This document shows positions 6,981 through 51,782 of a stretch of 64,000 nt of DNA, in pieces; within the stretch, counting starts at the first letter, position 1, and each line of letters starts with the position of its first letter. The stretch is from a virus, in IMG/VR virus record IMGVR_UViG_3300030060_004544, positions 6,179-70,178 of that record. One strand, given 5' to 3'. Both the position numbers and the translations under genes were made by a program. The notes beneath the pieces are model-generated. The model ran no database searches, had not been told where the DNA came from, and saw only the letters and a list, made by a program, of their open reading frames with translations.

Positions 6981-7382
6981 ATGGCAATACAGTTTTTGCA
7001 AGACACACTTATAAACGGTCATTTTAGTTTCCAGGAATCTGCATTTACAAGTGTAGTAGCTAGTGGTAATACACATACTGTAGACTTAACCGCAGACACT
7101 AATAACTATAAGGTAATTGCAAATAATGCAACAAACACCTTGGCTTTTAGTAATTTAAGCGATAAAGTTATTGGTAAAACAGGCTCTATAGCTATCCAAA
7201 ATCCAGCTAGTGTAGGATCTTTAGGTTGGGCAGCTTTACCCGCTACAGCTTATACTCCAGGTGGTGTAGCTATATCATTTGACACAAGTTCAAACGGCAT
7301 AGCTGTTATTTCTTACCTTGTAATGTCAGCAAATAAAGTATTAATAAACTATGTAGGAGACTTTGGTAGTTATCCTCAGTAA
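6981..7382 (+). CDS. Small beta-rich virion protein, candidate anchor for the Thr-rich filament
   Basis: 133 aa; VDL...N...TLAFSN...GKTGSIAI...W pattern of phage fibre adaptor domains; 11 nt upstream of zipper gene A. Confidence 0.55.
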   Translation: MAIQFLQDTLINGHFSFQESAFTSVVASGNTHTVDLTADTNNYKVIANNATNTLAFSNLSDKVIGKTGSIAIQNPASVGSLGWAALPATAYTPGGVAISFDTSSNGIAVISYLVMSANKVLINYVGDFGSYPQ

Positions 7383-7393
7383 AATCTAATTTA

Positions 7394-10288
7394 ATGAAGT
7401 GGTTATGGAATAAAATAGATTTCTGGAATACCGCGACTAGCAGAAGCACAACAGTTAGTACTTCTAAATCGACGGCTACAAGCAAATCCACAACTACTAC
7501 TTTTAACACAAGTAAGAGTACTACAACGGTATATAATACAAGTACTAATACTACAACTACTTTCAATACTAGTAAAAGTACAAGTACTGTTTTTAATACT
7601 AGTACTACAACTACTTTTGAAACTTCTAGGGAAACTACTGTATCAACCAGTAGATCAACTAGCACAGAGTTTAATACTAGCACATCTACAACTACAACCT
7701 TTGAAACTAGTAAGTCAACCACGACTACTTTCAATACTAGCACAACTACAACATTTGAAACATCTAGGCAGACAACAGTCTCTACTAGCAGATCAACTAC
7801 AACTACATTTAACACAAGTAAGTCTACAACCACTACTTTTGAAACTAGCAAGAGTACTACTACAACCTTTAATACAAGTACAACAACAACTTTTAATACT
7901 AGCAGGGAAACTACAATATCAACAAGTAGAACTACTCAAACTGCATATAACACTAGTAAAAGTACAACTACTATTTACGAAACTAGCAAAAGTACTACTA
8001 CTACATTTAACACTAGTACTACTACCACTTTTGAAACTAGTAGGGATACTACTGTGTCAACTAGTAGAAGTACAACAACAACTTTCAATACTACAAAAAG
8101 TACTACCACTACTTTTAATACAACAAAAAGTACTAGTACAGTATTCAATACAAGTACTACAACGACTTTTAATACAAGTAGAGAAACTACTATAAGTACA
8201 TCAAGATCAACTCAGACTACGTTTGCTACTAGCAAGTCTACATCTACTGTTTTCAATACTAGCACAACCACTACGTTTAATACAAGTAGAGAAACAACTA
8301 TAAGTACGTCTAGAAACACTACTACAACGTTCAACACTAGTAAATCTACATCTACAGTATTTAATACTAGCACGACTACTACTTTTGAAACAAGCAAACA
8401 AACAACTGTTTCAACTAGTAGAAGTACTACTACCACATTTAATACTAGCAAGAACACAACTACTACTTACAACACGACAAAGTCTACTAGTACGGTTTTT
8501 AACACAAGTACCACTACCACTTTCAACACTAGTAGAGAGACTACTATATCTACATCTAGATCTACAACGACTACGTTTAATACTAGTAAAAACACTACAA
8601 CGACTTTCAATACAACAAAGTCAACTAGCACTGTGTTTAATACTAGTACTGTTACAACGTTTAACACAACTAGAGAAACTACAGTATCAACTAGTAGAAA
8701 CACTACAACAACCTTTAATACAAGTAAAAATACGACAACTACGTTTAATACTACTAAGTCTACAAACACTGTATTTAACACGTCTACTACAACAACATAC
8801 AATACCACTAGAGAAACAACTATTTCAACTAGTAGAAACACAACAACAGTATACAATACTACTAAGTCTACGACCACAACGTTTAATACTACTAAAACAA
8901 CTAATACTGTATTTAACACAACAACTTTAACTACGTTTAGTACAACTACAACATATAATACAAGTAAATCAACTGCAACTAGCAGAAACACTACTGTATC
9001 TACTACTAGAACTACTGAAACCGCGTACAATACTACTAGAACTACACAAACTACTTTTAATACTTCAACAAGTACATCAACAAGTAGAGAAACTACTATA
9101 AGCACTAGTAGAAGCACCAACACTGTTTTTAACACAACTACACTGACAACATTTGGCACGCAAACAACTTTTAGCACTTCTAAGTCAACTCTTACTGTTT
9201 TTAATACTACTACTTTAACCACGTTTAATACAACAACGACTTTCAATACCACTAGGTCTACGAACACTGTATTTAACACCACTACTTTAACTACGTTTAA
9301 CACGGTAACAACTTTTAATACTACTAGAGATACTACTACGATATTTAGCACAACAACGTTAACCACGTTTGATACCACAACAACATTTTCTACTAGTACA
9401 CTAACAGAAACAATTTACAACACTAGTACTACTACTACCACTACAACAACGTTTAACACCAGTAGAAACACATCGGAAAGTAGAACTACAAGTACTACAA
9501 CAACATTTTCTACAACGACAGTTTTTAACACAACTAGAACTACTAACGTTAATTATGTTGTATGGGATGTGCAACAAGGAGATAGTAGTACTCTTGGTGC
9601 AGGTTATATATACAAACAAAACATATCACCTACTGGTGGAAGTAACATTGCTGCAAGTGAGGTTAGATTTAATAACCAACTTCCTGAAAATGCTAGTAAA
9701 GTATATATACATGAAGAAGATGATACAGGTTATAACCTTTATAACGCGTTTTCAAATGTAATGAATTTTGTTAACGCTGGTGGTGGAAATTATGCTAGAT
9801 TTCTTATAGCTGCTGACGTACTTCAAAAAGCTATTTCTTTTAAAGTTACCGGTGGATCATATAATTCTACTTTAGATTATTTTGAATTTGATCTAGCTGA
9901 AAACATATTTGTTGACACAGTTAAGTGTCCAGGTTATAACACATTTGTCTTAGAAGCAGGTGATACAAAATTAGAAGTATGGATGTGGAGAAGTGATGGT
10001 GCTGGTGGATACAGTACAACTACTACAACTACGTTTAGCACAAGTACGTTAACAACATTTAACACTGTAACAGTATATAACACTAGTAAAAGTACACAAA
10101 CAACGTTTAGTACATCTAAATCTACATCAACAAATAGAAATACTTCAGAAAGTAGAAGTACAACTACAACTTTTAATACTCTAAGATCAACCATAACACA
10201 ATACAATGCGTTTACTTTATACAATACATTTAGATCAACATTTACATCAGGCGGCGGTGGAGGCGGCTGTAGTAGAGGTTGTATATAA
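7394..10288 (+). CDS. Thr/Ser-rich repeat protein A (putative beta-zipper filament chain with an inserted globular domain)
   Basis: 964 aa: Trp-rich N-terminus, about 700 aa of TSKSTTTTFN/TSTTTTFN/TSRETTVS units, about 155-aa non-repetitive domain (9548-10012), second Thr-rich tract, ends GGGGGGCSRGCI. Confidence 0.85.
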   Translation: MKWLWNKIDFWNTATSRSTTVSTSKSTATSKSTTTTFNTSKSTTTVYNTSTNTTTTFNTSKSTSTVFNTSTTTTFETSRETTVSTSRSTSTEFNTSTSTTTTFETSKSTTTTFNTSTTTTFETSRQTTVSTSRSTTTTFNTSKSTTTTFETSKSTTTTFNTSTTTTFNTSRETTISTSRTTQTAYNTSKSTTTIYETSKSTTTTFNTSTTTTFETSRDTTVSTSRSTTTTFNTTKSTTTTFNTTKSTSTVFNTSTTTTFNTSRETTISTSRSTQTTFATSKSTSTVFNTSTTTTFNTSRETTISTSRNTTTTFNTSKSTSTVFNTSTTTTFETSKQTTVSTSRSTTTTFNTSKNTTTTYNTTKSTSTVFNTSTTTTFNTSRETTISTSRSTTTTFNTSKNTTTTFNTTKSTSTVFNTSTVTTFNTTRETTVSTSRNTTTTFNTSKNTTTTFNTTKSTNTVFNTSTTTTYNTTRETTISTSRNTTTVYNTTKSTTTTFNTTKTTNTVFNTTTLTTFSTTTTYNTSKSTATSRNTTVSTTRTTETAYNTTRTTQTTFNTSTSTSTSRETTISTSRSTNTVFNTTTLTTFGTQTTFSTSKSTLTVFNTTTLTTFNTTTTFNTTRSTNTVFNTTTLTTFNTVTTFNTTRDTTTIFSTTTLTTFDTTTTFSTSTLTETIYNTSTTTTTTTTFNTSRNTSESRTTSTTTTFSTTTVFNTTRTTNVNYVVWDVQQGDSSTLGAGYIYKQNISPTGGSNIAASEVRFNNQLPENASKVYIHEEDDTGYNLYNAFSNVMNFVNAGGGNYARFLIAADVLQKAISFKVTGGSYNSTLDYFEFDLAENIFVDTVKCPGYNTFVLEAGDTKLEVWMWRSDGAGGYSTTTTTTFSTSTLTTFNTVTVYNTSKSTQTTFSTSKSTSTNRNTSESRSTTTTFNTLRSTITQYNAFTLYNTFRSTFTSGGGGGGCSRGCI
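7436..9529 (+). repeat. Coding tandem repeat array of 80 even-length peptide units (46-aa and 36-aa super-repeats)
   Basis: 10-mer blocks occur in order 4,3,3,3,3,2,2,3,3,3,3 separated by 8+8 units; synonymous codons are diversified. Confidence 0.9.
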
Positions 10289-10299
10289 AATTAAATAAT

Positions 10300-11331
10300 A
10301 TGAATATACCTTATAGAACATCGGATACGCAACAAAATTATCATGCAGCTGATTTAACTTTTCGTGAAAATGGAGACATAGTCTGGACTAACCCTGTTAC
10401 TAATGAGATATGGGAAGTTATGATGGAGTGGGAAATACCAATCATGCAAAAAGCGGCAGAGGTGTGTGTTGACGCTGGTGCAGATGTTTTAGAGTGTGGT
10501 TTTGGCATGGGTATATTGTCAGACGCTATACAAGCTAGAAACCCAGGTACTCACACAATATGTGAAACGCATCCTCAAATAATACCTAAATTAAAAGCTT
10601 GGGCTGCAGATAAACCTAATGTAATTATCGTTGAAGACAAATGGTTGAGTTTGTTAAACGAGCGTAAAGGTTATGATGCAATACTAATGGACACATATGC
10701 AGACCCTGATTTACACCCTCATTTTAGATATTTTGTAAAACAAAAAGCAAAAGACGGAGCTAAAATAACATGGTGGAATTATAGTGGTGGAACAACAGAT
10801 GAGTATATGAAGTTTCACTGGGACGATGTAGTATTTCATAATGTAGCTATATCTCCACCTGAAAATCAGTATTATAATAGAAACGTGTATCCTGTTCCTG
10901 TTAAAGTTTACAATAGAGAAACAGGTTTTGGTGTATTATCAAGCTCTAGTTTTAATATAAGCGAAACAGAAAGCAAAGATCTACATGAAGTTAAATCATT
11001 TTTAACTTGTGATGTTTCAAATGGAACAAAAAGCGTTAAAAGTGTTGAAGGTGTTGAGAGATTAGCGATGTATTGCGAAGGTTTGTACACTTTAAATGAA
11101 AATTTAGTTATAGCTGGTTCACATCCTATATACGTAAAAAGAAATAATCAATGGACTACAGTTAAAGTAAATGAACTTGTAATTGGTGATAAACTATATG
11201 GTAAAAATGGAGAGGTTGAGCTAACAAGTAAAACTTTTGATTCGTCTGAAACAACAAGACAAATATATAAAGTAGTGCTTAATAACTATTTTGTTAACGA
11301 TATATTAGTGAAAGGAGGGTCTGATGCCTAA
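10300..11331 (+). CDS. RMT2/GAMT-like class I SAM methyltransferase fused to a degenerate Hint domain
   Basis: VMMEWEIPIM, VLECGFGMGI, HTICETHP, YDAILMDTY; C-terminal GSHPIYV...W..V..L.IGDKL...NYFVNDILV Hint pattern; ATG 10300 preferred over TTG 10279. Confidence 0.8.
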   Translation: MNIPYRTSDTQQNYHAADLTFRENGDIVWTNPVTNEIWEVMMEWEIPIMQKAAEVCVDAGADVLECGFGMGILSDAIQARNPGTHTICETHPQIIPKLKAWAADKPNVIIVEDKWLSLLNERKGYDAILMDTYADPDLHPHFRYFVKQKAKDGAKITWWNYSGGTTDEYMKFHWDDVVFHNVAISPPENQYYNRNVYPVPVKVYNRETGFGVLSSSSFNISETESKDLHEVKSFLTCDVSNGTKSVKSVEGVERLAMYCEGLYTLNENLVIAGSHPIYVKRNNQWTTVKVNELVIGDKLYGKNGEVELTSKTFDSSETTRQIYKVVLNNYFVNDILVKGGSDA

Positions 11332-13768
11332 TACTACTACTGTTTTCGGAACATCGAGGTTAACAACAATATCTGATTTTACTAATACTACTGTTTCTAC
11401 CAGTAGAAATACTACAACTACTTACACTACTAGTACTGTATACAATACGACAACTACTTTTAATACTACTACTAGTACAACCACTACGTATAATACTACT
11501 AAATCCACATCAACATCAAGAAATACTAGTTGGGCTACTAGTAGAAGTACTAGCACGGTTGTAGGTGCAGATATGGATGATGATGTAATGACTTTTTACA
11601 ACACTAGTACAAATACTTTAACGTCTAAAAGTACAAACACCACAACAACATACACTACAAGCACTACGTATCCTACAAGTAGATCAACAACAACAACTAC
11701 AAACTACAACACAAGTACTATTACGACAGAATCTAGTAACACTACAAGAGCTACATCAACTAGCAGAAATACTAGTTATGAAACTAGTAAAACTACAACT
11801 ACTACTTACAACACTACAAAATCTACATCAACAAGTAGAAACACCACTATTAGTACAAACAACAATACAACTACTACTTATAACACTACAAGAACTACAT
11901 CAACAAGTAGAAATACAACCGTATCTACTAATAGAAATACAACTACTACTTTCAACACAAGTACTATTACACAGACAAGTAGAAACACTTCATACAGCAC
12001 AAATAGAGATACAACAACGACATTTAATACTAGTACAACAACTACATTTAATACTACAACAACTTACAATACTAGTAGAAATACAACTACAACCTTTTCA
12101 ACAAGTACTAACACCGTAACTACGTTTAACACGCAGACGTTGACAACTTTTAACACTACAACTACTTTTAATACTAGTACTAATACGCAAACTAGTAGGA
12201 ACACAACTGTGTCTACAAATAAAAATACTACTACAACTTTTAACACAACAAAATCTACTACAACAACGTTTAATACGTCTAAATCAACAACAACGACGTT
12301 TAATACATCTACTACAACGACTTTTAACACGTCTAGAACAACAACTATTAGTACGAATAAAAATACCACTACAACGTTTAACACAACGAGAAGTACTCAA
12401 ACAACTTTTGCTACAAGTAAAAGTACTAGTACTGTGTTCAATACGTCTACAGTAACAACATTCAATACAAGTAGAACAACAACTGTTAGTACAAGTAGAA
12501 ATACAACAACAACCTTTAATACTACTAGGTCAACTCAAACTACATTTGCTACTAGTAAAAGTACCACAACAGTATTTAATACGAGTACAACTACTACTTT
12601 TAATACATCTAGATCTACCACGGTAAGTACAAGTAGAAACACCACGACTACTTTTAATACTACTAGAACTACGCAAACTACTTTTGCTACTAGTAAATCA
12701 ACTACTACAGTGTTTAACACCAGTACGACTACCACGTTTAACACATCAAGATCTACAACTATTAGCACAAGTAGAAATACTACAACTGTATACGCTACTA
12801 GTAAATCAACAACTACTACGTTTAATACGTCTACAACGACAACTTTCAACACTAGTAGATCTACTACAGTATCTACAAGTAGAAATACAACTACGACTTT
12901 TAATACTAGTAAAAATACAACCACAACATTTAACACTAGTACAACAACTACATTTAACACTAGTAGATCAACGACTGTTTCTACCAGTAGAAATACTACG
13001 ACTACGTTTAATACAACTAAAAGTACTACTACGACGTTTAATACTTCTAAAAGTACTACAACCGTATTTAACACATCAACTACGACAACATTTAATACTA
13101 GTAGGTCTACTACTATAAGCACATCTAGATCTACGACTACAATATTTAATACAAGTAAGTCTACTACTACTACGTTTCAAACAAGTACTAATACCACTAC
13201 GACTTTTAATACAAGTACGACTACCACTTTTGAAACTAGTAGATCAACAACTATAAGTACGTCAAGAAGTACAACGACCACGTTTAATACAACTAAATCT
13301 ACTACGACCACATTCAATACTAGTAAGAGTACAACAACGGTGTTTAATACTTCAACAACAACTACTTTTAATACTAGTAGAAGTACTACTGTTAGTACTA
13401 GTAGAAGTACAACAACTACTTTTAACACAACAAAAGCAACAACTACAAACTACAACACAAGTACTGACACGACTACTACTTTTAACACTAGTACGACTAC
13501 AACTTTTAATACCACTAGAGTTACAACAGTTAGTACGTCTAAAAATACTACGACTACATTTAACACGACTAAAACTACACAAACAACTTTTAGTACAAGT
13601 AAGAGTACCACCACAACTTTTAACACAACAAAGAGTACTACTACAATATTTAACACTACTACAGTGTTTAATACTAGTACAACTACTACGTTTGAAACTA
13701 ATACTAACTGGTATGATGGTGATCCTGGTAATTATGGTCAATTAGGTGATGTATCCTTTGATAGGTAG
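11324..13768 (+). CDS. Thr/Ser-rich repeat protein B (mirror partner of protein A)
   Basis: 814 aa of the same unit alphabet; short acidic loop GADMDDDVM; ends NWYDGDPGNYGQLGDVSFDR. Confidence 0.85.
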   Translation: MPNTTTVFGTSRLTTISDFTNTTVSTSRNTTTTYTTSTVYNTTTTFNTTTSTTTTYNTTKSTSTSRNTSWATSRSTSTVVGADMDDDVMTFYNTSTNTLTSKSTNTTTTYTTSTTYPTSRSTTTTTNYNTSTITTESSNTTRATSTSRNTSYETSKTTTTTYNTTKSTSTSRNTTISTNNNTTTTYNTTRTTSTSRNTTVSTNRNTTTTFNTSTITQTSRNTSYSTNRDTTTTFNTSTTTTFNTTTTYNTSRNTTTTFSTSTNTVTTFNTQTLTTFNTTTTFNTSTNTQTSRNTTVSTNKNTTTTFNTTKSTTTTFNTSKSTTTTFNTSTTTTFNTSRTTTISTNKNTTTTFNTTRSTQTTFATSKSTSTVFNTSTVTTFNTSRTTTVSTSRNTTTTFNTTRSTQTTFATSKSTTTVFNTSTTTTFNTSRSTTVSTSRNTTTTFNTTRTTQTTFATSKSTTTVFNTSTTTTFNTSRSTTISTSRNTTTVYATSKSTTTTFNTSTTTTFNTSRSTTVSTSRNTTTTFNTSKNTTTTFNTSTTTTFNTSRSTTVSTSRNTTTTFNTTKSTTTTFNTSKSTTTVFNTSTTTTFNTSRSTTISTSRSTTTIFNTSKSTTTTFQTSTNTTTTFNTSTTTTFETSRSTTISTSRSTTTTFNTTKSTTTTFNTSKSTTTVFNTSTTTTFNTSRSTTVSTSRSTTTTFNTTKATTTNYNTSTDTTTTFNTSTTTTFNTTRVTTVSTSKNTTTTFNTTKTTQTTFSTSKSTTTTFNTTKSTTTIFNTTTVFNTSTTTTFETNTNWYDGDPGNYGQLGDVSFDR
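11603..13696 (+). repeat. Coding tandem repeat array of 80 peptide units, reverse order of 7436-9529
   Basis: 10-mer blocks in order 3,3,3,3,2,2,3,3,3,3,4; 2094 nt, the same length as the array in gene A. Confidence 0.9.
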
Positions 13769-13821: not shown

Positions 13822-14715
13822 ATGGAAATGTTTAATAGACGTGAGTTGGACAAAAGAATTGGCCATCTCAAAAAAAATAAAAAACTTGAAAGTTTAGAAC
13901 AAGTAGAAGGATACTTTATAAGAAAGTGTACTGAAGCTGGTATTGATTTTAGCTATGATGTTATGGCTGATGAAATGCCTCATTTTAAAACTTTAGCATA
14001 TACTGAGTTTGCTACTAGTTTTTACATGCAACCTCTAAACACAAAACTTAGATACGCTCAAATGATTGACGCATACGATGATGATTGTGATGTTGTTGAT
14101 TACTCATCTTATTTAATTGAAAATGTTATGAGTAAAAATGCTAATAAGTATCAAGATAGAGACTCTAAGTTTGATCAATATGAGCCGAAAGATAATATTG
14201 TTATATTACCTGGCTCAAATAAAGTAAAATCCAATATTTGCTTAAACAGATTAAAGTTTTTAGCAAATAAACATGGTAATAACATGTATTTTAAGCCACA
14301 TCCTATAACAACACATCAAATTATAGGTGAGTTAAAAGACTTTTTTGGCGACCAAAATATATTACCAAGGGATATAGATATGTATTATTATTTACAAAAA
14401 GCAAATAACGTATACACTACTCATATTAGTGAAAGTATGATATACGCGGCTGTTTTAGGTAAAAAAATTGAACCTATTGACGTTTGGAATAACATACAAA
14501 TGGGATCTTTTTATTGCATTAACAACCATTTGCTTGATAATCAACATGATATTAAAAATTATATCAATAAGTGTTTTTCAAGTCCAAAGTCTGGTATTAT
14601 AAACCCAGCTGTAGACAAAAATTGGAAAGAAAAAATAGATAAATACTTACAATACATACTTAAAAAACGAGAAATGTACAAAGACTGGTTTATAGCTGAA
14701 CCAAAAAAGAAGTAA
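13822..14715 (+). CDS. KpsS/KpsC (capsule synthesis)-like GT-B glycosyltransferase, probable CMP-sugar donor
   Basis: YFKPHP motif followed by LQKANNVYTTHISESMIYAAVLGKKI, matching the K.HP ... L...D.V.T..S...EA...GK.V pattern. Confidence 0.6.
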   Translation: MEMFNRRELDKRIGHLKKNKKLESLEQVEGYFIRKCTEAGIDFSYDVMADEMPHFKTLAYTEFATSFYMQPLNTKLRYAQMIDAYDDDCDVVDYSSYLIENVMSKNANKYQDRDSKFDQYEPKDNIVILPGSNKVKSNICLNRLKFLANKHGNNMYFKPHPITTHQIIGELKDFFGDQNILPRDIDMYYYLQKANNVYTTHISESMIYAAVLGKKIEPIDVWNNIQMGSFYCINNHLLDNQHDIKNYINKCFSSPKSGIINPAVDKNWKEKIDKYLQYILKKREMYKDWFIAEPKKK

Positions 14716-15779: not shown

Positions 15780-15996
15780 CGAGTTGGTTAAGGTTGCTAA
15801 AGAGCCTATAGTAGAAACTGAAGATGATGTTTCTGCTGATAGATTAAAAAACGCTGCGGCCACAAAAAAACTAGCTATATTCGATGCTTTTGAAATACTT
15901 AACCGTATTGAAGCTGAACAAGCAATGCTTGATGGTGTTGTAAAAGAAACTAAGCAAGAGTCTTTTGGTGGTTTCGCAGAAAGAAGATCTAAGTAA
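15724..15996 (+). CDS. Helical protein, candidate terminase small subunit
   Basis: Immediately upstream of and TAATG-coupled to terL; function inferred from position only. Confidence 0.45.
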   Translation: MSTKEKKKNIIQAGYRAVDELVKVAKEPIVETEDDVSADRLKNAAATKKLAIFDAFEILNRIEAEQAMLDGVVKETKQESFGGFAERRSK

Positions 15997-18206
15997 TGTA
16001 TAATCAAAGTTTATGTGAAATTGTTAAGCCAATAAAATTAAACACAATTAAAAGGCTTAATAAAAAAAAGGCTTGGAAATATGGCTATAATAAAGAACAC
16101 GATGTTGTAGTTATTAGCAAAGATGGTACAATAGGTGATGTGTATAGCATACAAAACTTAAAAATAGCATTACCTAAGCAACCAAAGAAAGTACATAAGT
16201 TTGAAAAAAACAAATGGCAAGTTACGCCATATCCAAAAGAATTGAATCAAATAAAAACTATTTTTGATTGGAGAGATTACCCAGCTAATTTTAAAGAAAA
16301 GTATATAGATTACATAGAAGATGAGTTCAGAAGAAGAGAAAATGGTTTCTGGTTTTATAACAAGGGTGTTGCTACTTATATTAGCGGTACTCACTATATG
16401 TATCTCCAGTGGTCTAAAATAGACGTAGGTAAACCCGATTTTAGAGAAGCAAATAGATTATTTTATATATTTTGGGAAGCTTGTAAAGCTGATAGTAGAT
16501 GTTATGGTATGTGCTACCTTAAAAACAGACGATCTGGTTTTTCATTTATGGCTTCAGGTGAAACAGTTAATTTAGCTACAATATCAAGCGATGCAAGGTT
16601 TGGTATATTATCTAAATCAGGTGCTGATGCTAAAAAAATGTTTACTGACAAGGTTGTACCAATATCAGTTAATTATCCTTTCTTTTTCAAACCGATTCAA
16701 GATGGTATGGATCGACCAAAAACAGAGTTAGCTTATAGAGTACCAGCCTCAAAACTTACAAGAAGAAAAATAACAAGCAACGATAAACCTGAAGAGCTAA
16801 CAGGTCTTGATACGACGATAGACTGGAAAAACACGGGTGATAACAGTTATGATGGTGAAAAGCTAAAATTATTAGTACATGATGAATCTGGTAAGTGGGA
16901 AAGACCAGATAACATATTAAATAACTGGAGGGTAACAAAAACTACTTTACGATTAGGTAGTAGAATTATAGGAAAATGTATGATGGGATCAACGTGTAAC
17001 GCGTTAGACAAGGGTGGTGATAATTTTAAAAAGTTATATTATAATTCAGATGTTACTAAGCGAAACAGAAATGGTCAAACTAATTCGGGTTTGTACTCTT
17101 TTTTTATTCCAATGGAGTGGAACTATGAGGGTTTTATTGATGAATACGGGATACCTGTATTTGAAAATCCAGAAACAGAAGTATACGGTCCTCATAACGA
17201 TGTTATTGATACTGGAGTTATTGCGCACTGGCAAAACGAAGCGGATGGGTTAAAAAACGACCAAGATGCTTTAAACGAATATTATAGACAGTTTCCAAGA
17301 ACTGAAGAACACGCTTTCAGAGATGAAACTAAAAATAGTATATTTAATCTAGTAAAAATATACGAGCAAATTGATTATAATGAAATGCAAAGCAAACCCA
17401 TAAAAGGTAGTTTTGTATGGGAAAATGGTATTAAAGATACTAACGTTAGATTTTATCCAGATGAAACTGGTAGATTTAATTTATCTTGGGTTCCATCAGT
17501 TAATCTACAAAATAGATATTTTATTAAAAACGGTAAAAAATATCCTGGTAATGAGCACATAGGTGCTTTTGGTTGTGATAGTTATGACATATCAGGTACT
17601 GTTGATAATAGAGGTTCTAAAGGCGCTTTACACGGTTTAACTAAGTTTAGTATGGAAGACGCGCCGCCTAACGAGTTTTTTTTAGAATATATTGCAAGAC
17701 CTGATACAGCTGAAATGTTTTTTGAAGATGTATTAATGGCGTTGGTATTTTACGGCATGCCAATACTTGCAGAAAATAATAAACCTAGATTATTATACTA
17801 TTTAAAACGTAGAGGTTATAGAGGTTATTCAATGAATAGACCTGATAAGCTTTGGAACAAATTATCTACAGCTGAAAAAGAAATAGGAGGTATACCAAAC
17901 TCCAGTGAAGATATTAAACAAGCACATGCTGCAGCTATTGAAAGTTATATACAGCAGTACGTTGGTTTAAAAGAAGAGGGACAATATGGTAATATATCAT
18001 TTAATATAACTTTAAATGATTGGGCTAGATTTGATATTAATAATAGAACAAAGTTTGATGCTACTATTAGTTCAGGTTTAGCAATTATGGCTTGTAATAA
18101 AAATTTATATAGGCCAAGTCCAAAAAGAGAAAATACAACAATAAATTTTGGTTTTACAAAATACAACAATAAAGGTATGTCATCAAAACTGATAACTAAT
18201 GATTAA
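15996..18206 (+). CDS. terL: Terminase large subunit
   Basis: Walker A-like LKNRRSGFS, Walker B LLVHDESGK, GST coupling motif, nuclease FGCDSYD and FDATIS. Confidence 0.92.
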   Translation: MYNQSLCEIVKPIKLNTIKRLNKKKAWKYGYNKEHDVVVISKDGTIGDVYSIQNLKIALPKQPKKVHKFEKNKWQVTPYPKELNQIKTIFDWRDYPANFKEKYIDYIEDEFRRRENGFWFYNKGVATYISGTHYMYLQWSKIDVGKPDFREANRLFYIFWEACKADSRCYGMCYLKNRRSGFSFMASGETVNLATISSDARFGILSKSGADAKKMFTDKVVPISVNYPFFFKPIQDGMDRPKTELAYRVPASKLTRRKITSNDKPEELTGLDTTIDWKNTGDNSYDGEKLKLLVHDESGKWERPDNILNNWRVTKTTLRLGSRIIGKCMMGSTCNALDKGGDNFKKLYYNSDVTKRNRNGQTNSGLYSFFIPMEWNYEGFIDEYGIPVFENPETEVYGPHNDVIDTGVIAHWQNEADGLKNDQDALNEYYRQFPRTEEHAFRDETKNSIFNLVKIYEQIDYNEMQSKPIKGSFVWENGIKDTNVRFYPDETGRFNLSWVPSVNLQNRYFIKNGKKYPGNEHIGAFGCDSYDISGTVDNRGSKGALHGLTKFSMEDAPPNEFFLEYIARPDTAEMFFEDVLMALVFYGMPILAENNKPRLLYYLKRRGYRGYSMNRPDKLWNKLSTAEKEIGGIPNSSEDIKQAHAAAIESYIQQYVGLKEEGQYGNISFNITLNDWARFDINNRTKFDATISSGLAIMACNKNLYRPSPKRENTTINFGFTKYNNKGMSSKLITND

Positions 18207-46724: not shown

Positions 46725-46965
46725 AATAAAAGGCGGAGGGACTAAAAAAGTCTGTTTACCATACAATAAATATAAAAGTATGAGTAAAGCCGAAAAGCAA
46801 AAAGTTATACGTGCTAAACGTAAAGCTGCTGCTTCAGGTAAATATAAAAGATCTAGTAAATCTAATGTCAAAGGCGCTAGAAAAAAAGGCGCTACATTAA
46901 GAGACTGGTTTCAAAAAGAAAAATGGGTTAACATAGCCAACGGTAAACCGTGTGGAGCTAAGTAG
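46711..46965 (+). CDS. Small very basic protein
   Basis: VCLP..K...MSKAEK...RAKRKA and LRDWFQKEKWVNI..GKPCG; last + strand gene. Confidence 0.7.
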   Translation: MPKSKIKGGGTKKVCLPYNKYKSMSKAEKQKVIRAKRKAAASGKYKRSSKSNVKGARKKGATLRDWFQKEKWVNIANGKPCGAK

Positions 46966-47782
46966 CTTTTACCCTTTTCTTATAGTATTTAGTACGCTCA
47001 GGTGAACATATAACCATAGGCATATTCTTTGCCCAACCTGTGTACTTAATTTTCTTTTCATTTAAATCACTTAATATATGCCAAGTCAATTGACCAGTTC
47101 TTGCTAGCCAAGAAACAAATTGTTCTTCGAGATGATGTGAATGAGCGCTGTGAGGTCTAGCATATATTGGTAAATGCCAGCTATGTGGATCGTGAGCGCT
47201 TATCTCTTCTTTACCTGTTTTTTTATTGTGACCTACTCTTCTTGTTACTGTTGACTTAGCAAAAAAATCAAAACCTATTATTGAAAGACTTTTATAAGTC
47301 TTTATTTTTTCTATAAACCAAGCTATTGCTAAAAACCCAGTAGAAGGTCTTTGTTTTGATGTTAACACATCCATATCATAAACCTTCATAGTATCTATTA
47401 TTTCTTTGTCAGTATACATTTGTTTGTAACCATATTTTATCAACTCTTCGCATATGTGTTTTTCAATCACAAACTCTTTTACTTTAAAATTACCTCTTGA
47501 TCTATTTATTAATATAGTAGTTTTTTCAAACTTACCACCAGGTTTAAATTCTTCTATTTTCTTTTTAAAAGCATGAGATCTAAATTGTCCTGTTATCCAT
47601 ATATCACATTTAGAACCTAACGACTTTTCTTGCTCTTCAGTAGCCTCTAATGCTCTACCAAACTTAACAACTATATCATGGCTGTCTATAAAATCTTTAT
47701 TTTTATACGCCATCATCTCAACAGAGTTGCCTACAAAAATAACTGATTTATTTTTTACTAACTCTTTAATATATTTCTCCAT
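46958..47782 (-). CDS. GT29 (sialyltransferase)-like glycosyltransferase, probable CMP-Kdo donor
   Basis: Sialylmotif L-like SVIFVGNS...IDSHDIVVKFG...GSKCD, motif S-like RPSTGF...IIGFDFF, VS-like HSHHLE. Confidence 0.75.
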   Translation of the reverse strand: MEKYIKELVKNKSVIFVGNSVEMMAYKNKDFIDSHDIVVKFGRALEATEEQEKSLGSKCDIWITGQFRSHAFKKKIEEFKPGGKFEKTTILINRSRGNFKVKEFVIEKHICEELIKYGYKQMYTDKEIIDTMKVYDMDVLTSKQRPSTGFLAIAWFIEKIKTYKSLSIIGFDFFAKSTVTRRVGHNKKTGKEEISAHDPHSWHLPIYARPHSAHSHHLEEQFVSWLARTGQLTWHILSDLNEKKIKYTGWAKNMPMVICSPERTKYYKKRVKAT

Positions 47783-48414
47783 TCATCTGCAAATTCACAA
47801 TCTTTATACTCTTCAAACCAAGGTCCACCATTTGTAAAGTGTATACCTTTAGCTGGATTTTTCTTGGAGTAAGGTTGTTCACTTACTAAATGATTCCAAG
47901 TTTTATCTATTTCACTTATTTTATTACCAGCCCAAGCTAACTGGTGTAGATCTGCTGCACTAGCATTATCTAAATATTCTTTTGTTAAAATGTCTTTTAG
48001 TTTTTCATTGTTAAAAACCATTAATGAACTCCAGTTTTTTCTTGGATAAGACTTGTTAACAATACCGTTCATCTTTGTTTGTTGAATATCGTAGTACTTA
48101 TGTTTTACACAAGCTACTAAATCGTCTTCTTTTAAATAATCAAAAACCTTAGCAACATCATCTCTAAATATAAAATCATTATCACAAAACATAGATAGAC
48201 CTTTGTATTTAGACATAAGTGGTGTATAAAAACGTGTAAATGAAAACTCTGTTGATTCACCTTCTGTTTCTTTTCTACCGTATATATCTTTACTTATTAA
48301 CTTGTGTTTATATAAAGGAATTATCTTTATGTTTTTATTATGTTTTTTTATAGATTTATAACAGGCTTTAGTTGCCTCTGGGTATCGACTATCATGTCCT
48401 ATAAATACTCTCAT
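47758..48414 (-). CDS. GT-A fold (GT8-like) glycosyltransferase
   Basis: VFIGHD, STEFSFTRF, DxD in FCDNDF, YPRKNWSSLMVFN, WNHLV, HFTNGGPW. Confidence 0.8.
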   Translation of the reverse strand: MRVFIGHDSRYPEATKACYKSIKKHNKNIKIIPLYKHKLISKDIYGRKETEGESTEFSFTRFYTPLMSKYKGLSMFCDNDFIFRDDVAKVFDYLKEDDLVACVKHKYYDIQQTKMNGIVNKSYPRKNWSSLMVFNNEKLKDILTKEYLDNASAADLHQLAWAGNKISEIDKTWNHLVSEQPYSKKNPAKGIHFTNGGPWFEEYKDCEFADEWRNILKS

Positions 48415-49163
48415 ACTAATTGTTTTAATATTTCTTCAAATTTATCTAACTTAATCATATTAGACCCATCACTCCATGCTGCACTAGGATTTTCGTGTAC
48501 TTCAAAAAAGTAACCGTCAACGCCAACTGCTTTTGCAGCTTTTGCAATATGTATAGCATAGCGTGGTTGACCAGCCGTTGTGCTGCCTGAATTAGGTCTT
48601 TGTGTTGAGTGCGTACAGTCTATTATAACTGGTACGTCTAATTCTTTCATGTCTATGATCTGTCTAAAATCTACAACAAGATCACCCATACCAAACATAC
48701 TACCTCTTTCAGTTAGCATAATATTATTATTACCTGTACTTTTAACTTTATTAACAGCGTGTATCATATTGCTACCATTTATAAACTGTCCTTTTTTAAT
48801 ATTAACATTTTTAAACGTGTGACCCGCAGCAACTAATAAATCAGTTTGTCTACATAAATAAGCTGGTATTTGTATAATATCTACAACATCAGCTAACTTA
48901 TCTGCTTGCCAAGGTTCATGTATATCTGTTGTAATCTTACAACCATCTAGCTCTTTCAACTCAGCAAATATATCTATAGCTTTATCTATGCCAATACCTC
49001 GTTTAGAGTTTACAGATGTTCTATTAGCCTTGTCAAATGAAGCTTTGAAATAATAATCAAAACCATACTTATCTGCTAGCTCTGAGCATTTGTTAGATAT
49101 TTCATGCGCTTGTATTCTACCTTCTAGACTACATGGTCCAGCTATCAATATAGGTTTTTTCAT
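48411..49163 (-). CDS. kdsA: Kdo-8-phosphate synthase, metal-dependent type
   Basis: IAGPCS, KASFDKANRTS, QIPAYLCRQTDL, NIKKGQF, TERG, DCTHSTQRP, FFEVH, SDG. Confidence 0.96.
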   Translation of the reverse strand: MKKPILIAGPCSLEGRIQAHEISNKCSELADKYGFDYYFKASFDKANRTSVNSKRGIGIDKAIDIFAELKELDGCKITTDIHEPWQADKLADVVDIIQIPAYLCRQTDLLVAAGHTFKNVNIKKGQFINGSNMIHAVNKVKSTGNNNIMLTERGSMFGMGDLVVDFRQIIDMKELDVPVIIDCTHSTQRPNSGSTTAGQPRYAIHIAKAAKAVGVDGYFFEVHENPSAAWSDGSNMIKLDKFEEILKQLV

Positions 49164-49789
49164 TTAGTAAAATTTACTATAAGTTTATGTTTTGGTATAT
49201 ATTTTCTTATTAATTTTTTCCACTTATCTGGGTGCATTAATGTAACATGCATGTTTTCACCGTTATCAAAATGCGCGTGTGAAGGTGACATAGGTATAGA
49301 CATAACTATAACACCGCATGTGCAAGTTAAATCTGCTAGATCTCTAAGTAAAGCTGGTAACTCTTCTAACGGAACGTGCTCTACAACATCACAACATACT
49401 GTCATATCAAATTTAGCCTGTGGTGGTCTAACGTGGTATATAGGGTGACATGGGTCATACCTATAAAAACCAGCAACGTTTTCACCTAAAAACTCCATCA
49501 ATGTCATAGCGTCATATTTATCTGGAACTCTTTTGCCTGGCCTTGTGTATTTTTCACCATTATATATTCCTTTTCTTTTATGCCAAACTTGAGCAGAGCC
49601 ACAACCATAGTCTAATATCATTGAGCCTGGATTTTCACTTATCCATTTTTTTGTTGGATGTAATATTGTTTTCCAACCACTACCATCGCCATAACCACCT
49701 TCAACCTTAGTTCTCCAACTACCGTCACGTTCTTTTATTTTATATGCAGCGCCTTGGTGTAATGCTTTGTATTTTTCTCCGTATTTCAT
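49160..49789 (-). CDS. Class I SAM-dependent methyltransferase, probably glycan-modifying
   Basis: ILDYGCG, YDP, FDMTVCCDVVEHVP, HVTLMHPDKW; between kdsA and kdsB. Confidence 0.8.
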   Translation of the reverse strand: MKYGEKYKALHQGAAYKIKERDGSWRTKVEGGYGDGSGWKTILHPTKKWISENPGSMILDYGCGSAQVWHKRKGIYNGEKYTRPGKRVPDKYDAMTLMEFLGENVAGFYRYDPCHPIYHVRPPQAKFDMTVCCDVVEHVPLEELPALLRDLADLTCTCGVIVMSIPMSPSHAHFDNGENMHVTLMHPDKWKKLIRKYIPKHKLIVNFTK

Positions 49790-50424
49790 TTTATATCTTT
49801 ATAAGTATTAACTTCTACTCCATCGTATGTAGTTTCAACTACATCAATATCATATAAACCTAATATTCTGTTTTGTTCTAAGTTTTCTAATTTATATTTA
49901 TCTTTCATAACTCTATATGCTTTTAACATATAAGGTTTATAAGCGTATATACCTAAATGTCTATCGCCATAACCTATGTCAGATCTTGTAAACCACATTG
50001 CTTTACCATTTTGATGTATAACTTTTACATCATCTGGTTTAGCACCCTTTGTGTAAGCGGTTAAACAGACTACATCTTTTTTATTTAATGCTTTTATTAT
50101 AGGTCTCATTGTATCTAAATTTATATCTAACATATCACCTTGCACGTTTAATATGTAATCATATTCATTTACTAAATCTAATACAACTCTCTTAGATAAT
50201 CTATGTGTACCGTTATCAGCTTTACCCGTTTGTATACACCATTTAATTGGAAACAGTTTAGCAATACGCTTACTGTCTGTCGCTACAAATGTATCATATC
50301 CCATCATACGTACTTTATCAAACACAAGACGTATCAAAGGTTCATCATCGAACTTCATCAACATTTTGTGTTTGATTCTAGTACTATTAAGTCTTGCTGG
50401 TATAACTACCGCTATGTTTTTCAT
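49786..50424 (-). CDS. kdsB: CMP-Kdo synthetase (cytidylyltransferase)
   Basis: VIPARLNSTRIKHK, VATD, NGTHR, LNVQGD, HLGIYAY, ENLEQNRIL. Confidence 0.92.
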   Translation of the reverse strand: MKNIAVVIPARLNSTRIKHKMLMKFDDEPLIRLVFDKVRMMGYDTFVATDSKRIAKLFPIKWCIQTGKADNGTHRLSKRVVLDLVNEYDYILNVQGDMLDINLDTMRPIIKALNKKDVVCLTAYTKGAKPDDVKVIHQNGKAMWFTRSDIGYGDRHLGIYAYKPYMLKAYRVMKDKYKLENLEQNRILGLYDIDVVETTYDGVEVNTYKDIK

Positions 50425-50765
50425 ATCTTAGTACCAGCTGTTCTTCTTATTATATCATCGTGATTAAACTCAGCCCAATATAATTCAAAAGCAACACCAT
50501 CTTCAACACCCTCAAACTGATGTATTTTACCAGGTTTTACCATAGTAAAATCACCTGCTTCAAGTATTGTTTCATCAACAAGACCTTGATCTTCTTGCCA
50601 TACTCTGACAAGCATCTTACCGGACTCTACAAAAAATCCGTTCCATTTAAATCTATGCTCGTGTTCAGAGCATTTAAATCCTTTATTAAATTGTATTCGG
50701 TGAAACTCCATGACGCCGTTTTTATGGATCATTTCTGTTTTACCCCATATTTTACCTGCTTTCAT
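50421..50765 (-). CDS. Cupin, possible sugar isomerase/epimerase
   Basis: KIWG...CSEHEHRFK...FVESG...LEAGD...VKPGKIHQF. Confidence 0.78.
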   Translation of the reverse strand: MKAGKIWGKTEMIHKNGVMEFHRIQFNKGFKCSEHEHRFKWNGFFVESGKMLVRVWQEDQGLVDETILEAGDFTMVKPGKIHQFEGVEDGVAFELYWAEFNHDDIIRRTAGTKI

Positions 50766-50952
50766 TTATTATCTTTTGTAATTTTTCTTTATCACCAAAC
50801 AATACTAAACAATCGTAATCTTTAGTTTCAATATCCTCTATCTTTTCTACGTTATCAATAACCCATTTAGCGCAAAACGCATTATTTAAATTAGCCATTA
50901 ATCTTGAGTTTCTAATATTGTAAGGAGCTTCTACTATTGCTACTCTATTCAT
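50752..50952 (-). CDS. Hypothetical protein
   Basis: 66-aa ORF overlapping both neighbours. Confidence 0.6.
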   Translation of the reverse strand: MNRVAIVEAPYNIRNSRLMANLNNAFCAKWVIDNVEKIEDIETKDYDCLVLFGDKEKLQKIINESR

Positions 50953-51782
50953 TTTTTTAAATTATTAAAATAAGTTTTTTTCCAATTGCTACCACCCATC
51001 CTAAACCTTTTAGGCACTTCGTTTGTGCGGTAACCTTTTTTATTAAAATACAAATCTTTTGGCACCCAATCATACCATTTAGGTCTGTACATACCTTTAC
51101 CCTTTGCCGTTATATTAAACTTTTTTAACGTTTGATTTTTTTTATTTGCAAAGTGTATACTTATAGATATTCTAGGTGTAAGTGATTCAGCTTTGTGATA
51201 CCTGTATTGTGGTATATACAATAAATCACCAGGTTCTAAAACAAACTCATCAACTACTTTACCAGGCTCTCTATTAGGAGCTGAGTTTTCATATATAGTC
51301 CATTTAACTTTACCCTCAGTGTGAAACAAAAAGTTTTCTGTTTGATCACAATGCGCTGGAAACCCAACAGCATCTTTTTTACTTGAGCAATATATATTAA
51401 CTGTACCTCTATTAAAGTATCTTTCAAACTCGTTACATATCGCAACAAACTTTTCTTTCGTGTACTCAGCACCTGGTAATACAAATGTTTTACCTGACTG
51501 CCAAAATTCAAACAATTCTTCTTTGCTCAACATTGGTAATTTTAATTTACCTGATTTAACTTTGTTTAAACACCAGCTTTTACCTTTGCCGTCATAGTCT
51601 AATACTTGTAAATGATTTAAATTATCTGGGTAATTGTTCATTACGTTATTAAAATCGTTCCATTTAAATAATGTTTTAAATATATTTCTTCTAATAACTA
51701 AATGTTTTTTACCCCAGTAATGCAGCCAAAACCTCTTAGGATCGACTGGGTTTAATATGTCTTTTAATGTTATATTATCCAT
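50949..51782 (-). CDS. JmjC (cupin_4/RoxA-like) 2-oxoglutarate/Fe(II) oxygenase
   Basis: FWLHYWGKKHLVI, GFPAHCD (HxD), GKVKW, LEPGDLLYIP...H. Confidence 0.85.
   Translation of the reverse strand: MDNITLKDILNPVDPKRFWLHYWGKKHLVIRRNIFKTLFKWNDFNNVMNNYPDNLNHLQVLDYDGKGKSWCLNKVKSGKLKLPMLSKEELFEFWQSGKTFVLPGAEYTKEKFVAICNEFERYFNRGTVNIYCSSKKDAVGFPAHCDQTENFLFHTEGKVKWTIYENSAPNREPGKVVDEFVLEPGDLLYIPQYRYHKAESLTPRISISIHFANKKNQTLKKFNITAKGKGMYRPKWYDWVPKDLYFNKKGYRTNEVPKRFRMGGSNWKKTYFNNLKK

Follow-up and report, generated by a model that had tools for sequence, protein, structure and literature searches.

Two threonine-rich phage proteins in mirror register, probable strands of one antiparallel fibre

The A-M-B locus and its neighbours

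The window analyzed here is a stretch of 64,000 nucleotides from a viral record (IMGVR_UViG_3300030060_004544, positions 6,179 to 70,178), in which two neighbouring threonine-rich genes, A and B, are separated by a third one, M, and accompanied by the features collected in Table 1. The gene order A-M-B is kept in 49 related loci, a methyltransferase gene stands between A and B in every locus, and in all loci the A/B genes lie between a 626-aa fibre-like protein and the terminase, within a fibre-like block just upstream of the latter. The carriers form a clade of marine phages that is widespread but uncultured, with Flavobacteriia as the probable hosts. Neither A nor B matched a Pfam or PHROG family (E<=0.01), megablast against 50,697 phage records gave no match, and both M and the ~110-aa domain encoded upstream of A are absent from the cultured phages searched. 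One locus, L033, was considered as an M locus lacking B and discarded, as B is interrupted there and its '345-aa ORF' is an off-frame shadow.

Table 1. Features of the A-M-B locus (positions are those of the window).
Feature	Position	Strand	Remarks
133-aa protein, candidate adaptor	6981-7382	+	~110-aa domain, found by BLASTP across related loci
A gene	7394-10288	+	threonine-rich; neighbour of B
A residues 1-11 (MKWLWNKIDFW), N-terminal clasp, aromatic/basic	7394-7426	+	kept across subfamilies; faces B C-terminal tail; proposed proximal end
A residues 12-718, Thr-rich array	7427-9547	+	even-length units, 46- or 36-aa super-repeat; mirror register with B 792-89
A residues 719-873, inserted globular domain	9548-10012	+	left outside the zipper; hypervariable when relatives are compared
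A residues 874-952, distal repeat segment	10013-10249	+	mirror-paired with B 80-1
A tail GGGGGGCSRGCI and stop	10250-10288	+	putative overhang past B N-terminus at the tip; motif G(n)-C-x-R-G-C-x
M, 350 aa	10279-11331	+	overlaps both A stop and B start
M N-terminal GAMT-like class I methyltransferase	~10417-10833	+	homology to GAMT
M C-terminal Hint-like region	~10846-11298, boundaries uncertain	+	weak intein profile match
B gene	11324-13768	+	threonine-rich; neighbour of A
B residues 1-80, distal repeat segment	11324-11563	+	begins with conserved MPNTTT; mirror-paired with A 952-874
B residues 81-89 (GADMDDDVM), short loop outside the repeats	11564-11590	+	faces base of A inserted domain
B residues 90-792, Thr-rich array	11591-13699	+	mirror-paired with A 718-12
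B residues 793-814 (NWYDGDPGNYGQLGDVSFDR region) and stop, conserved C-terminal clasp	13700-13768	+	proposed proximal end
297-aa protein	13822-14715	+	predicted GT-B-like fold; position directly 3' of B conserved

The ~110-aa domain of the 133-aa protein adjoins A upstream in all 24 of the 24 related loci listed (BLASTP E 1e-17 to 1e-71), where it forms the C-terminus of proteins of variable length (124-1422 aa); the protein itself had no Pfam, PHROG or cultured-phage match. From this co-occurrence, the role in anchoring a fibre that had been proposed for it is plausible. Downstream of B, the model of the 297-aa protein (pLDDT 80.5) has Kdo transferases as its nearest structures (KrkA, E 2.2e-5; KpsC, E 8.3e-4; TM 0.33-0.45); the protein may be a fibre-modifying enzyme. 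As to transcription, a 199-nt metatranscriptome contig (X20) covers positions 9822-10015 with 5 differences, and the remaining X20 pieces, of 35-40 nt, lie on repeats; all of them could represent DNA carry-over, and none was counted as expression.

Mirror register of A and B

When A and B are set head to tail, so that the sum of their residue positions (pA + pB) is constant, aromatic residues face Lys or Arg, Asn faces Ser, and Thr faces Thr. At a sum of 807, aromatics of A stand opposite 54 of the 60 Lys/Arg of B, and 54 aromatics of B stand opposite Lys/Arg of A; in the offset scan, these 54 + 54 coincidences compare with 36 at the next best offset and with 29-31 at the best parallel ones. 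A was then aligned with reversed B by residue class only. For the window's pair, the mirror alignment reached a score of 504 and 120 aromatic-basic pairs, where the parallel one gave 135 and 71. The mirror alignment is flush at both ends: it runs ungapped from A12/B792 to A718/B89, leaves A 719-866 looped out opposite B88, and continues ungapped to the B N-terminus, the A insert being its only large gap. N:S pairs, which the alignment does not score, are enriched 2.7-3.5 fold. Moreover, 98% of the aromatic/basic residues lie on one residue parity and 99-100% of the Asn on the other, and for that reason both chains look like continuous beta-strands, with an aromatic/cationic face and a Ser/Thr/Asn face.

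The alignment was challenged with several controls, all of which share the aromatic/basic scoring that had been devised after the pattern was seen. Shuffling the unit order of B lowered the score to 278 +/- 10, leaving the observed value more than 20 SD above. About half the cognate score was obtained when A or B was aligned with its own reversed sequence, and likewise for distant non-cognate pairs; cross-scores with the close relatives L031 and L028 nearly equalled the cognate ones. The regular array of the window alone (B reads 4,2,4) does not discriminate the orientation; the discrimination is provided by the relatives, the irregular regions and the insert. Correlation of k-mer positions is a noisy measure, uninformative for the window (r=-0.04) and negative in 21 of the 25 pairs listed, duplicates included, the non-negative ones being L020, L038, L039 and L044. 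A DNA-level palindrome as the source of the mirror was discarded, since the inverted repeats found have imperfect arms of only 16-27 nt. Prediction of a complex between A 640-964 and B 1-167 from 6-row alignments reached a score of 0.02 where the mark is 0.32; the partner stayed below pLDDT 50, and the run gives no verdict.

We then turned to related viral contigs (loci with L-numbers), which provide 23 distinct A/B pairs. Mirror alignment beat parallel alignment in 23 of 23, by 2-4 fold, and in L036 internal gaps reaching 6 residues are absent over 1667/1661 aa. The lengths of A and B correlate with r = 0.93 as they stand and 0.999 after removal of the looped-out stretches, over a range of 434-1667 aa. 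Counts of the 46- and 36-aa super-repeats covary as well, A read forward equalling B read in reverse (3,3,2 in L006; 4,1,3 in L007; 3,4,2 in L009).

It could be argued that A and B do not bind at all, and that the mirror is a by-product of independent constraints acting on paralogous low-complexity proteins, such as spacing rules of a modifying enzyme or the folding of lone beta-solenoids. In fact, both arrays come from one forward repeat, and the canonical 46-aa unit is by its nature complementary to its own mirror image, so that the repeat itself contributes some of the mirror signal (A against reversed A, 338). However, we regard this explanation as very improbable, since it cannot account for the mirrored, position-specific indels that covary among close relatives, the length match, the excess of cognate over non-cognate and self scores, or the distance from the unit-order shuffles. 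As for solenoids, Thr-rich ice-binding and ice-nucleation proteins have repeats dominated by Thr, with a short, even period and flat faces of Thr, and the A/B repeats resemble them in these respects. Nevertheless, ice-binding solenoids are single chains of constant coil length, whereas A and B mix super-repeats of 46, 36 and other lengths and are mirror-constrained by a partner.

The insert and the distal segment

The earlier note had A's non-repetitive domain interrupting the array opposite the acidic loop of B, with mirror symmetry resuming beyond it. Its coordinates translate into the residues given in Table 1, and both statements were borne out: the domain (148-155 aa) leaves the gap at A719-866 that faces B88, and the distal segment past it pairs ungapped down to the B N-terminus. 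All 10 aromatic-to-Lys/Arg pairs there fall at a single offset, compared with 5 at the best parallel offset and with a mean of 3.5 and a maximum of 6 in 300 residue shuffles, each taken at its best offset. None of the 300 shuffles reached the observed value in 9 of the 10 insert-carrying loci, the exception being L034 (P=0.09). The unit lists originally proposed needed correction. Past the insert, A was re-parsed as 8,8,6,10,6,6,10,10,6,9, in agreement with the former list from the second unit onward; B read backwards gives 4,8,6,6,10,6,6,8,10,8,8, where one 6-unit and one 8-unit had been missed. The mirror match is exact at the level of residues, not of unit boundaries. Likewise, the acidic character of the opposite loop holds in the closest relatives (GADMDDDVM/PADMDDDVM) and fails in L006 and L009, and in the A-side loops of L015, L019 and L034.

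Alignment of insert and loop positions in homologues had been named beforehand as a test, and it was observed: the residues remaining to the tip past the insert, on the A and B sides, are 88/74, 89/76, 90/74, 86/76, 88/76, 110/96, 100/94, 100/94, 103/88 and 73/68. Homologues with the insert swapped were also looked for and found; in L014, L015, L019 and L034 the domain sits in B instead of A, at the mirrored place, and it is homologous across A and B carriers (E 1e-8 to 3e-13). Such switching between chains at a mirrored position further argues against A and B being unbound paralogues. It amounts to a rare natural experiment, in which one domain occupies an unchanged physical site on one strand or the other, and supports a hairpin. 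On the other hand, a fused A-B form, the other kind of homologue to be searched for, was found neither among the related loci nor in a search for longer proteins.

A structure model of the insert was obtained with medium confidence (pLDDT 71.8). Its search against BFVD returned 45 matches at E<=0.001, the best at 5e-8 with TMq up to 0.61, to viral collagen-repeat and tail-fibre proteins, and this shared predicted fold (E 5e-8 to 1e-3, TMq 0.4-0.6) would place the insert in the family of viral fibre modules. Nothing in the PDB fell below E 0.05, and a word-based search gave no homologue. An HMM profile reached 1096 representative proteins, which makes the domain family a widespread one; it often occurs as 3-8 tandem copies in proteins of 600-3200 aa. 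Collagen-repeat fibres differ in having Gly-X-Y triple-helix or other homotrimeric shafts, while here a single copy is carried by either zipper chain. Based on the resemblance of this medium-confidence model to modules of such proteins, binding of a receptor or glycan by the insert is plausible, as the earlier note had suggested.

The A/B pair might, nonetheless, serve something other than a host-recognition tail fibre: a capsid or head fibre, an adhesin of particles or mucus-like matrix, or a structure in or on the infected cell, with the insert as an assembly or oligomerisation knob. We consider this unlikely. The proteins show no homology to known tail-fibre families, the insert has its fold relatives in collagen-like fibres, among heads or modules that usually serve trimerisation or adhesion, and a glycosyltransferase-like gene is present together with a Kdo-type sugar pathway, all of which would suit that option. 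However, the genes are located in the fibre-like block upstream of the terminase, beside the 626-aa fibre-like protein, and the insert is hypervariable between phages that share 86-98% identity in M, as is typical of receptor-binding parts.

M, the Gly-Cys tail and the proposed fibre

Residues 47-185 of M align, SAM motif included, with structures of guanidinoacetate N-methyltransferase (GAMT; PDB 3orh, 1xcj), the single sequence giving E 4e-11 and the profile 2.8e-17, and the motif ECGFGMG is invariant in 18 of 18 M homologues; by homology and motif I, the N-terminal domain belongs to the GAMT/RMT2-like class I SAM methyltransferases. Yeast Rmt2, a delta-N-arginine methyltransferase, is a relative. 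Unlike GAMT, M is phage-encoded, lies between two fibre genes, and comes with a Hint-like fusion or with a second methyltransferase-like gene alongside. From the chemistry of the family and the many Arg residues that A and B contain, M may methylate a guanidino-type substrate. Its metagenomic homologues fall in 93 clusters, none with a functional name, and nearly all carry the precomputed label PF27704.1.

The C-terminal region of M weakly resembles bacterial intein-like/Hint domains (Intein_splicing, PT-HINT, Vint; 9hth, 5o9i, 2lwy). Its profile matched 9hth at E 2.9e-4, 2jmz at 0.11 and 2lwy at 0.15; in Pfam, where no match reached the gathering score, Intein_splicing appeared in 8 of 18 homologues (best E 0.0053) and PT-HINT in 3 of the 18. 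The terminal Asn is invariant (18/18) and the His of a TxxH-like block is found in 12 of 18; in contrast to inteins, a +1 nucleophile is lacking in 16 of 18, the other two having Ser, and no clear N-terminal nucleophile was seen in the region. Block B aligns ~90 residues into the TFIIB intein, and thus the conserved Cys244 is probably not residue 1. The Hint-like domain is missing from a whole subgroup of loci. The tail motif G(n)-C-x-R-G-C-x of A occurs in frame in 17 of the 19 loci where the middle gene has this domain, with one more in a shifted frame, and in 0 of the 5 loci without it. A C-terminal domain of ~75 aa in A (L037, L038, L043, L044), considered as a cis Hint as 2 of 4 end in 'HNC', was rejected on account of its small size and of an end motif that varies (LNC, LVC, FSC). 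A fusion of A and M by frameshift was also rejected, since the M frame opens only a few codons before the M start in most loci; longer fused M forms (614-2000 aa) were not found, which is itself weak evidence.

The earlier note proposed that the A C-terminus lies beside the B N-terminus, and the Trp-rich A N-terminus beside the B C-terminus, and the mirror alignment, flush at both ends, supports this geometry. A and B share no homology with fibre or receptor-binding families in Pfam or PHROG; they combine location in a fibre gene block with one conserved end, putatively for attachment, and one variable end, putatively distal. Overall, we think it probable, on the strength of the residue pattern and its conservation, that A and B together build a heterodimeric fibre in which they run antiparallel and in register as its two strands, making a giant two-chain hairpin with a hypervariable tip and a conserved base. 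The chains would zip by cross-strand pairing, probably through cation-pi and Thr-Thr contacts, so that register and length would be set by the code. The base would consist of the A N-terminus and the B C-terminus, and the far end of the A C-terminus and the B N-terminus, a placement suggested by the variability gradient, in which conservation gives way to variability from the N-terminus of A to its C-terminus and in the opposite sense along B. The fibre-module-like domain of ~150 aa would be looped out of one chain 65-130 residues before the tip, facing a short loop in the other, and would most likely serve host recognition. The Gly-Cys tail of A would overhang the tip, with a possible functional tie to the Hint-like domain of M, whose methyltransferase probably modifies the fibre, Arg or Lys being the likeliest acceptors.

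The sequence fixes no polarity, and the hairpin could be real with the Gly-Cys tail/Hint end on the virion and the Trp/Tyr-rich end free. This would agree with the conserved motifs at the presumed tip (MPNTTT at the start of B, G(n)-CxRGC at the end of A) and with the ability of Hint-like domains to form covalent links, which is established for Hedgehog and inteins. Yet the reversed arrangement is quite unlikely, for variability concentrates at the Gly-Cys end, the fibre-module-like domain that hops between chains is located there, and the conserved upstream domain adjoins the gene end encoding the A N-terminus.

Among the closest known architectures is the gp37 needle at the tip of the phage T4 long tail fibre (PDB 2XGF), whose chain reaches the distal tip and then returns antiparallel to itself. 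Gp37 is one gene, a homotrimer with a within-chain fold-back over a few hundred residues and His-x-His iron sites. The proposed A/B fibre would share with it the thinness, the antiparallel outgoing and returning segments and a host-recognition part near the tip. It differs in having two genes with a methyltransferase gene between them, in containing 1 His in A and 0 in B and hence no HxH metal-binding repeats, and in pairing by an aromatic/basic, Asn/Ser and Thr/Thr code over 800-1660 residues. At the level of listings and abstracts, the literature searched holds no description of such a two-chain mirror-coded fibre, and the two-gene design was likewise not found in Pfam or PHROG searches. If fully extended, a two-stranded ribbon of ~800 residues would measure ~270 nm, a seemingly large figure for a podovirus-like phage, and the packing is therefore likely to be more compact or of higher order.

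More tentatively, a protein-protein code akin to base pairing, matching aromatics to Lys/Arg, Asn to Ser and Thr to Thr, may set the register of an antiparallel beta-ribbon of 430-1660 residues, with M methylating the Arg/Lys partners and so tuning the cation-pi rungs, and with the knob switching strand at the same rung near the tip.

If the two-chain fibre is correct, its length, register and partner specificity would be written as a simple residue-pair code over two genes, one that natural variants of 434 to 1667 residues all follow, and the switching insert would mark the likely host-recognition site. It would provide a direct test of how ladders of cation-pi and Thr-Thr contacts lend stability to beta-ribbons of great length, as well as a programmable beta-zipper that protein designers could take as a scaffold ready for use, and it would represent a new structural principle for phage appendages.

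Mirror relation between A and B in the window

The neighbouring Thr-rich proteins A and B, read as an antiparallel two-chain fibre, were compared at all mirror and parallel offsets, counting coincidences of aromatic residues with Lys/Arg. In one mirror register (summed residue positions, pA+pB=807), 54 aromatics of A each fall opposite one of the 60 Lys/Arg in B, and 54 Lys/Arg of A each opposite one of its 72 aromatics, against 34-36 coincidences at the runner-up mirror offset and 29-31 at the best parallel one. When A was aligned globally with reversed B, residue classes alone (aromatic, basic, other) being scored, the result was 120 aromatic-basic pairs and a score of 504, as compared to 71 pairs and a score of 135 in the parallel orientation. 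Features that the alignment did not score were enriched as well: Asn lies opposite Ser at 2.7-3.5 times expectation, and Thr opposite Thr at 1.5 times. Moreover, in each chain 98% of aromatic and basic residues fall on one residue parity over approximately 800 residues, and 99-100% of the Asn residues on the opposite parity; all units are therefore of even length. Each chain can be read as an uninterrupted alternating strand whose two faces are aromatic/cationic/Thr and Ser/Thr/Asn.

The class alignment is ungapped from A12 to A718, leaves A 719-866 looped out opposite B88, and is ungapped again to the B N-terminus, where MPNTTTVF of B faces ...FRSTFTS of A and the Gly-Cys tail of A overhangs. 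This is the arrangement proposed in an earlier note, in which a non-repetitive domain of A (9548-10012, A residues 719-873) was set opposite the loop GADMDDDVM of B (11564-11590, B residues 81-89), with mirror symmetry resuming beyond; the coordinates proved right. Post-insert A and the first 88 residues of B form 10 aromatic-basic pairs at a single ungapped offset, B having 12 such residues there. Shuffling the B residues and taking the best offset (300 trials) gave 3.5 pairs on average and never more than 6, and the best parallel offset gave 5, so mirror symmetry does resume past the looped-out domain. The unit lists of the note required correction: that for post-insert A holds from the second unit on (our parse: 8,8,6,10,6,6,10,10,6,9, then GGGGGGCSRGCI), and that for reversed B had omitted one 6-unit and one 8-unit (our parse from the loop: 4,8,6,6,10,6,6,8,10,8,8). 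The true regularity sits below unit level.

Aligning A with reversed A, or B with reversed B, gave 55-72% of the cognate A:B score, and distant non-cognate A/B pairs gave 47-71%; the closely related viral loci L031 and L028 cross-scored at 87-98%, as expected. When the unit order of B was shuffled (40 shuffles per locus), scores fell from 504 to 278 +/- 10 in the window, from 244 to 123 +/- 8 in L031, from 342 to 165 +/- 11 in L018 and from 111 to 66 +/- 6 in L020. At the DNA level, inverted repeats are imperfect and span 16-27 nt, with nothing beyond; the mirror is therefore a property of the protein level, kept by selection. The canonical 46-aa repeat is self-mirror-complementary (aromatics at 10, 20, 28 and 46; basics at 4, 14, 32 and 40), and the regular array of the window, in which B reads 4,2,4, does not by itself tell the two orientations apart; it is the relatives, the irregular regions and the insert that do so.

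Related loci, inserted domain and polarity

Using M, the protein encoded between A and B, as query, 49 related viral loci were found, in which the gene order (a protein ending in a 110-aa domain, A, M, B, a protein of ~300 aa) is kept wherever the contig extends. From these, 25 complete A/B pairs were extracted and 23 distinct pairs aligned, and the mirror score exceeded the parallel score 2-4 fold in all 23. L036 (1667/1661 aa), L032 (1424/1425), L031 (576/577), L028 and L018 align without any internal gap of at least 6 residues. The lengths of A and B correlate with r=0.93 as they stand and with r=0.999 without looped-out stretches of at least 40 aa, the differences ranging from -37 to +12 residues. 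In addition, among phages with M proteins 86-98% identical, the counts of 46- and 36-aa super-repeats vary yet covary in mirror order: 3,3,2 in L006 for A forward and B reversed (B forward being 2,3,3), 4,1,3 in L007 and 3,4,2 in L009.

Insert and loop positions also correspond in homologues, as the distance from insert or loop to the tip (A C-terminus and B N-terminus) covaries between chains: 88/74, 89/76, 90/74, 86/76, 88/76, 110/96, 100/94, 100/94, 103/88 and 73/68. Four loci (L014, L015, L019 and L034) have the arrangement swapped, B carrying the globular domain and A a short loop, at the mirrored place. The B-borne domains of L014, L019 and L034 match A-borne inserts (BLAST, E 4e-8 to 3e-13); that of L015 has no BLAST match to them and is grouped with them through alignments alone. 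Such a switch of chain at a constant physical rung is difficult to account for unless the chains form a hairpin.

The AF2 model of the insert (10-row alignment; pLDDT 71.8, pTM 0.74) is mostly beta. A Foldseek search of PDB found nothing below E 0.05, the top entry being an atadenovirus fibre head. In BFVD, 45 structures matched with E<=0.001 (lowest E 5e-8, TMq reaching 0.61), and nearly all belong to viral collagen-triple-helix-repeat or tail-fibre proteins. A profile search retrieved 1096 representative proteins with E<=0.001, of which 181 reach E<=1e-10; many of the 1096 have 600-3200 aa and 3-8 tandem copies. A Pfam scan of seven of them gave no name for the domain itself, with separate matches in four (DUF5907, CBM_5_12, Collagen and, more weakly, others). 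No other part of A diverges as much among close relatives: identity is 22-78% in the insert and 90-100% in the N-terminal half. Together, these results identify the insert as a fast-evolving module associated with fibres; the receptor- or glycan-binding role proposed for it in the note is a reasonable inference.

Across subfamilies, the A N-terminus (MKWLWNKIDFW-type) and the B C-terminus (W-Y-D-G-D...-type or SWY...-type) are conserved, and the variable parts are the C-terminal third of A and the N-terminal third of B. The 133-aa protein preceding A consists of a ~110-aa domain that elsewhere forms the C-terminus of proteins of 124-1422 aa. Each of the 24 related loci listed (e.g., L018:1518-5786) encodes this domain immediately before A; it could be assigned to no family and matched nothing in cultured phages. 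The conserved ends and this upstream domain support placing the base at the A N-terminus and B C-terminus, and the tip at the variable end. By gene adjacency, the 133-aa protein is a candidate adaptor. The B C-terminus (13700-13765) has a conserved D-G-D-P-G-N-Y-G-Q-L-G-D, which we take to resemble a possible Ca-binding loop. A short-fibre subgroup (L020, L024 and L033; A 434 aa, B 506-513 aa) has an extra ~70-aa globular domain, unrelated to the tip insert, at the B C-terminus (residues ~438-513 in L020 and L024; L033:2327-2632), the proposed base end. The A:B pair could form an extended two-stranded ribbon (~270 nm if fully extended), a ribbon bundle or paired meanders.

The methyltransferase protein and the A tail

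Residues 47-185 of M are homologous to guanidinoacetate N-methyltransferase (GAMT; E 4e-11 with the single sequence, 2.8e-17 with a profile). Its C-terminal region weakly matches intein/Hint entries (9hth, E 2.9e-4; TFIIB intein, E 0.008), and Pfam Intein_splicing was weakly matched in 8 of 18 M homologues. In this putative Hint-like region the terminal Asn is invariant, the TxxH His occurs in 12/18 and a +1 nucleophile in just 2/18. In the alignment with the TFIIB intein, block B of this region falls ~90 residues in, so that residue 1 is probably not the conserved Cys244. The homologues of M group into 93 clusters, all metagenomic and none functionally named, nearly all homologues bearing the precomputed label PF27704.1.

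Five loci are without the Hint-like domain: L037, L038, L043 and L044 have a GAMT-like gene and a second, divergent methyltransferase-like gene between A and B, and L068 has the divergent one alone, without the GAMT-like gene. There, A ends in a ~75-aa Cys-flanked domain that replaces the tail motif G(n)-CxRGCx, followed by a Gly-rich tail in four of the five. Of the 19 distinct Hint-like loci, 17 have the motif in frame and another, L029, has it in a shifted frame; it is absent from all five loci above. Being present with or without the Hint-like domain, the methyltransferase is the constant companion of the A/B pair; judging from the sequences, the Hint-like domain and the A tail are a linked, replaceable tip accessory. 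Methylation strengthens cation-pi pairing in beta-hairpins, and we hypothesize that Arg or Lys methylation by M would strengthen the aromatic contacts.

Gene block and sugar genes

The viral record is of 70 kb and rated complete, the window covering most of it. Its large terminase shares 46-63% identity with the terminases of Flavobacterium, Cellulophaga, Tenacibaculum and Maribacter phages and of one uncultured podovirus, and contigs from marine metagenome runs of three further studies hold related DNA (90-99% identity). The literature listings searched give no account of such fibres.

Genes of the fibre-like block and of the predicted sugar operon in the window
Feature	Position	Strand	Remark
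Fibre-like protein, 626 aa	5038-6918	+	upstream of terminase
133-aa protein	6981-7382	+	upstream of terminase
A, 964 aa	7394-10288	+	upstream of terminase; 40% Thr
M, 350 aa	10279-11331	+	upstream of terminase
B, 814 aa	11324-13768	+	upstream of terminase; 48% Thr
297-aa protein	13822-14715	+	upstream of terminase
Large terminase	15996-18206
Operon	46958-51782	-
ORF of the operon	46961-47782	-	no Pfam match
ORF of the operon	47761-48414	-	no Pfam match
KdsA-like DAHP_synth_1 (E 6.5e-60), KdsB-like cytidylyltransferase (E 4.7e-22), methyltransferase, cupin, JmjC protein	48414-51782	-	Pfam

A and B had no family match in Pfam or PHROG scans, and share a common forward super-repeat of 138 nt (46 aa; units 10+10+8+10+8). 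The overlaps of A with M (10 nt) and of M with B (8 nt) suggest coupled translation of the three genes. Long ORFs of 'VVVLVL' and 'LLQL' type (7306-9378 and 12064-13741; minus strand and other plus frames) were not accepted as genes, since they shadow the Thr-codon repeats; an ORF of this kind hides an interrupted B gene in L033. The 626-aa protein is Asp/Thr/Gly-rich, contains bactofilin-like repeats that are weak, and has matches in two PHROGs whose function is unknown.

In every locus the 297-aa protein is encoded immediately after B, and distant homologues of it occur in phages of Caulobacter and Vibrio. The structures closest to its AF2 model (pLDDT 80.5) are the Kdo transferases KrkA and KpsC and other GT-B enzymes, at low TM-scores (0.33-0.45), and the protein may glycosylate the fibre. 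The minus-strand operon is, by its gene content, a predicted phage-encoded CMP-ulosonic-acid pathway, which could feed this GT-like protein. Given the Kdo-type genes and the GT-like protein, a glycosylated Ser/Thr/Asn face of the fibre is worth considering.
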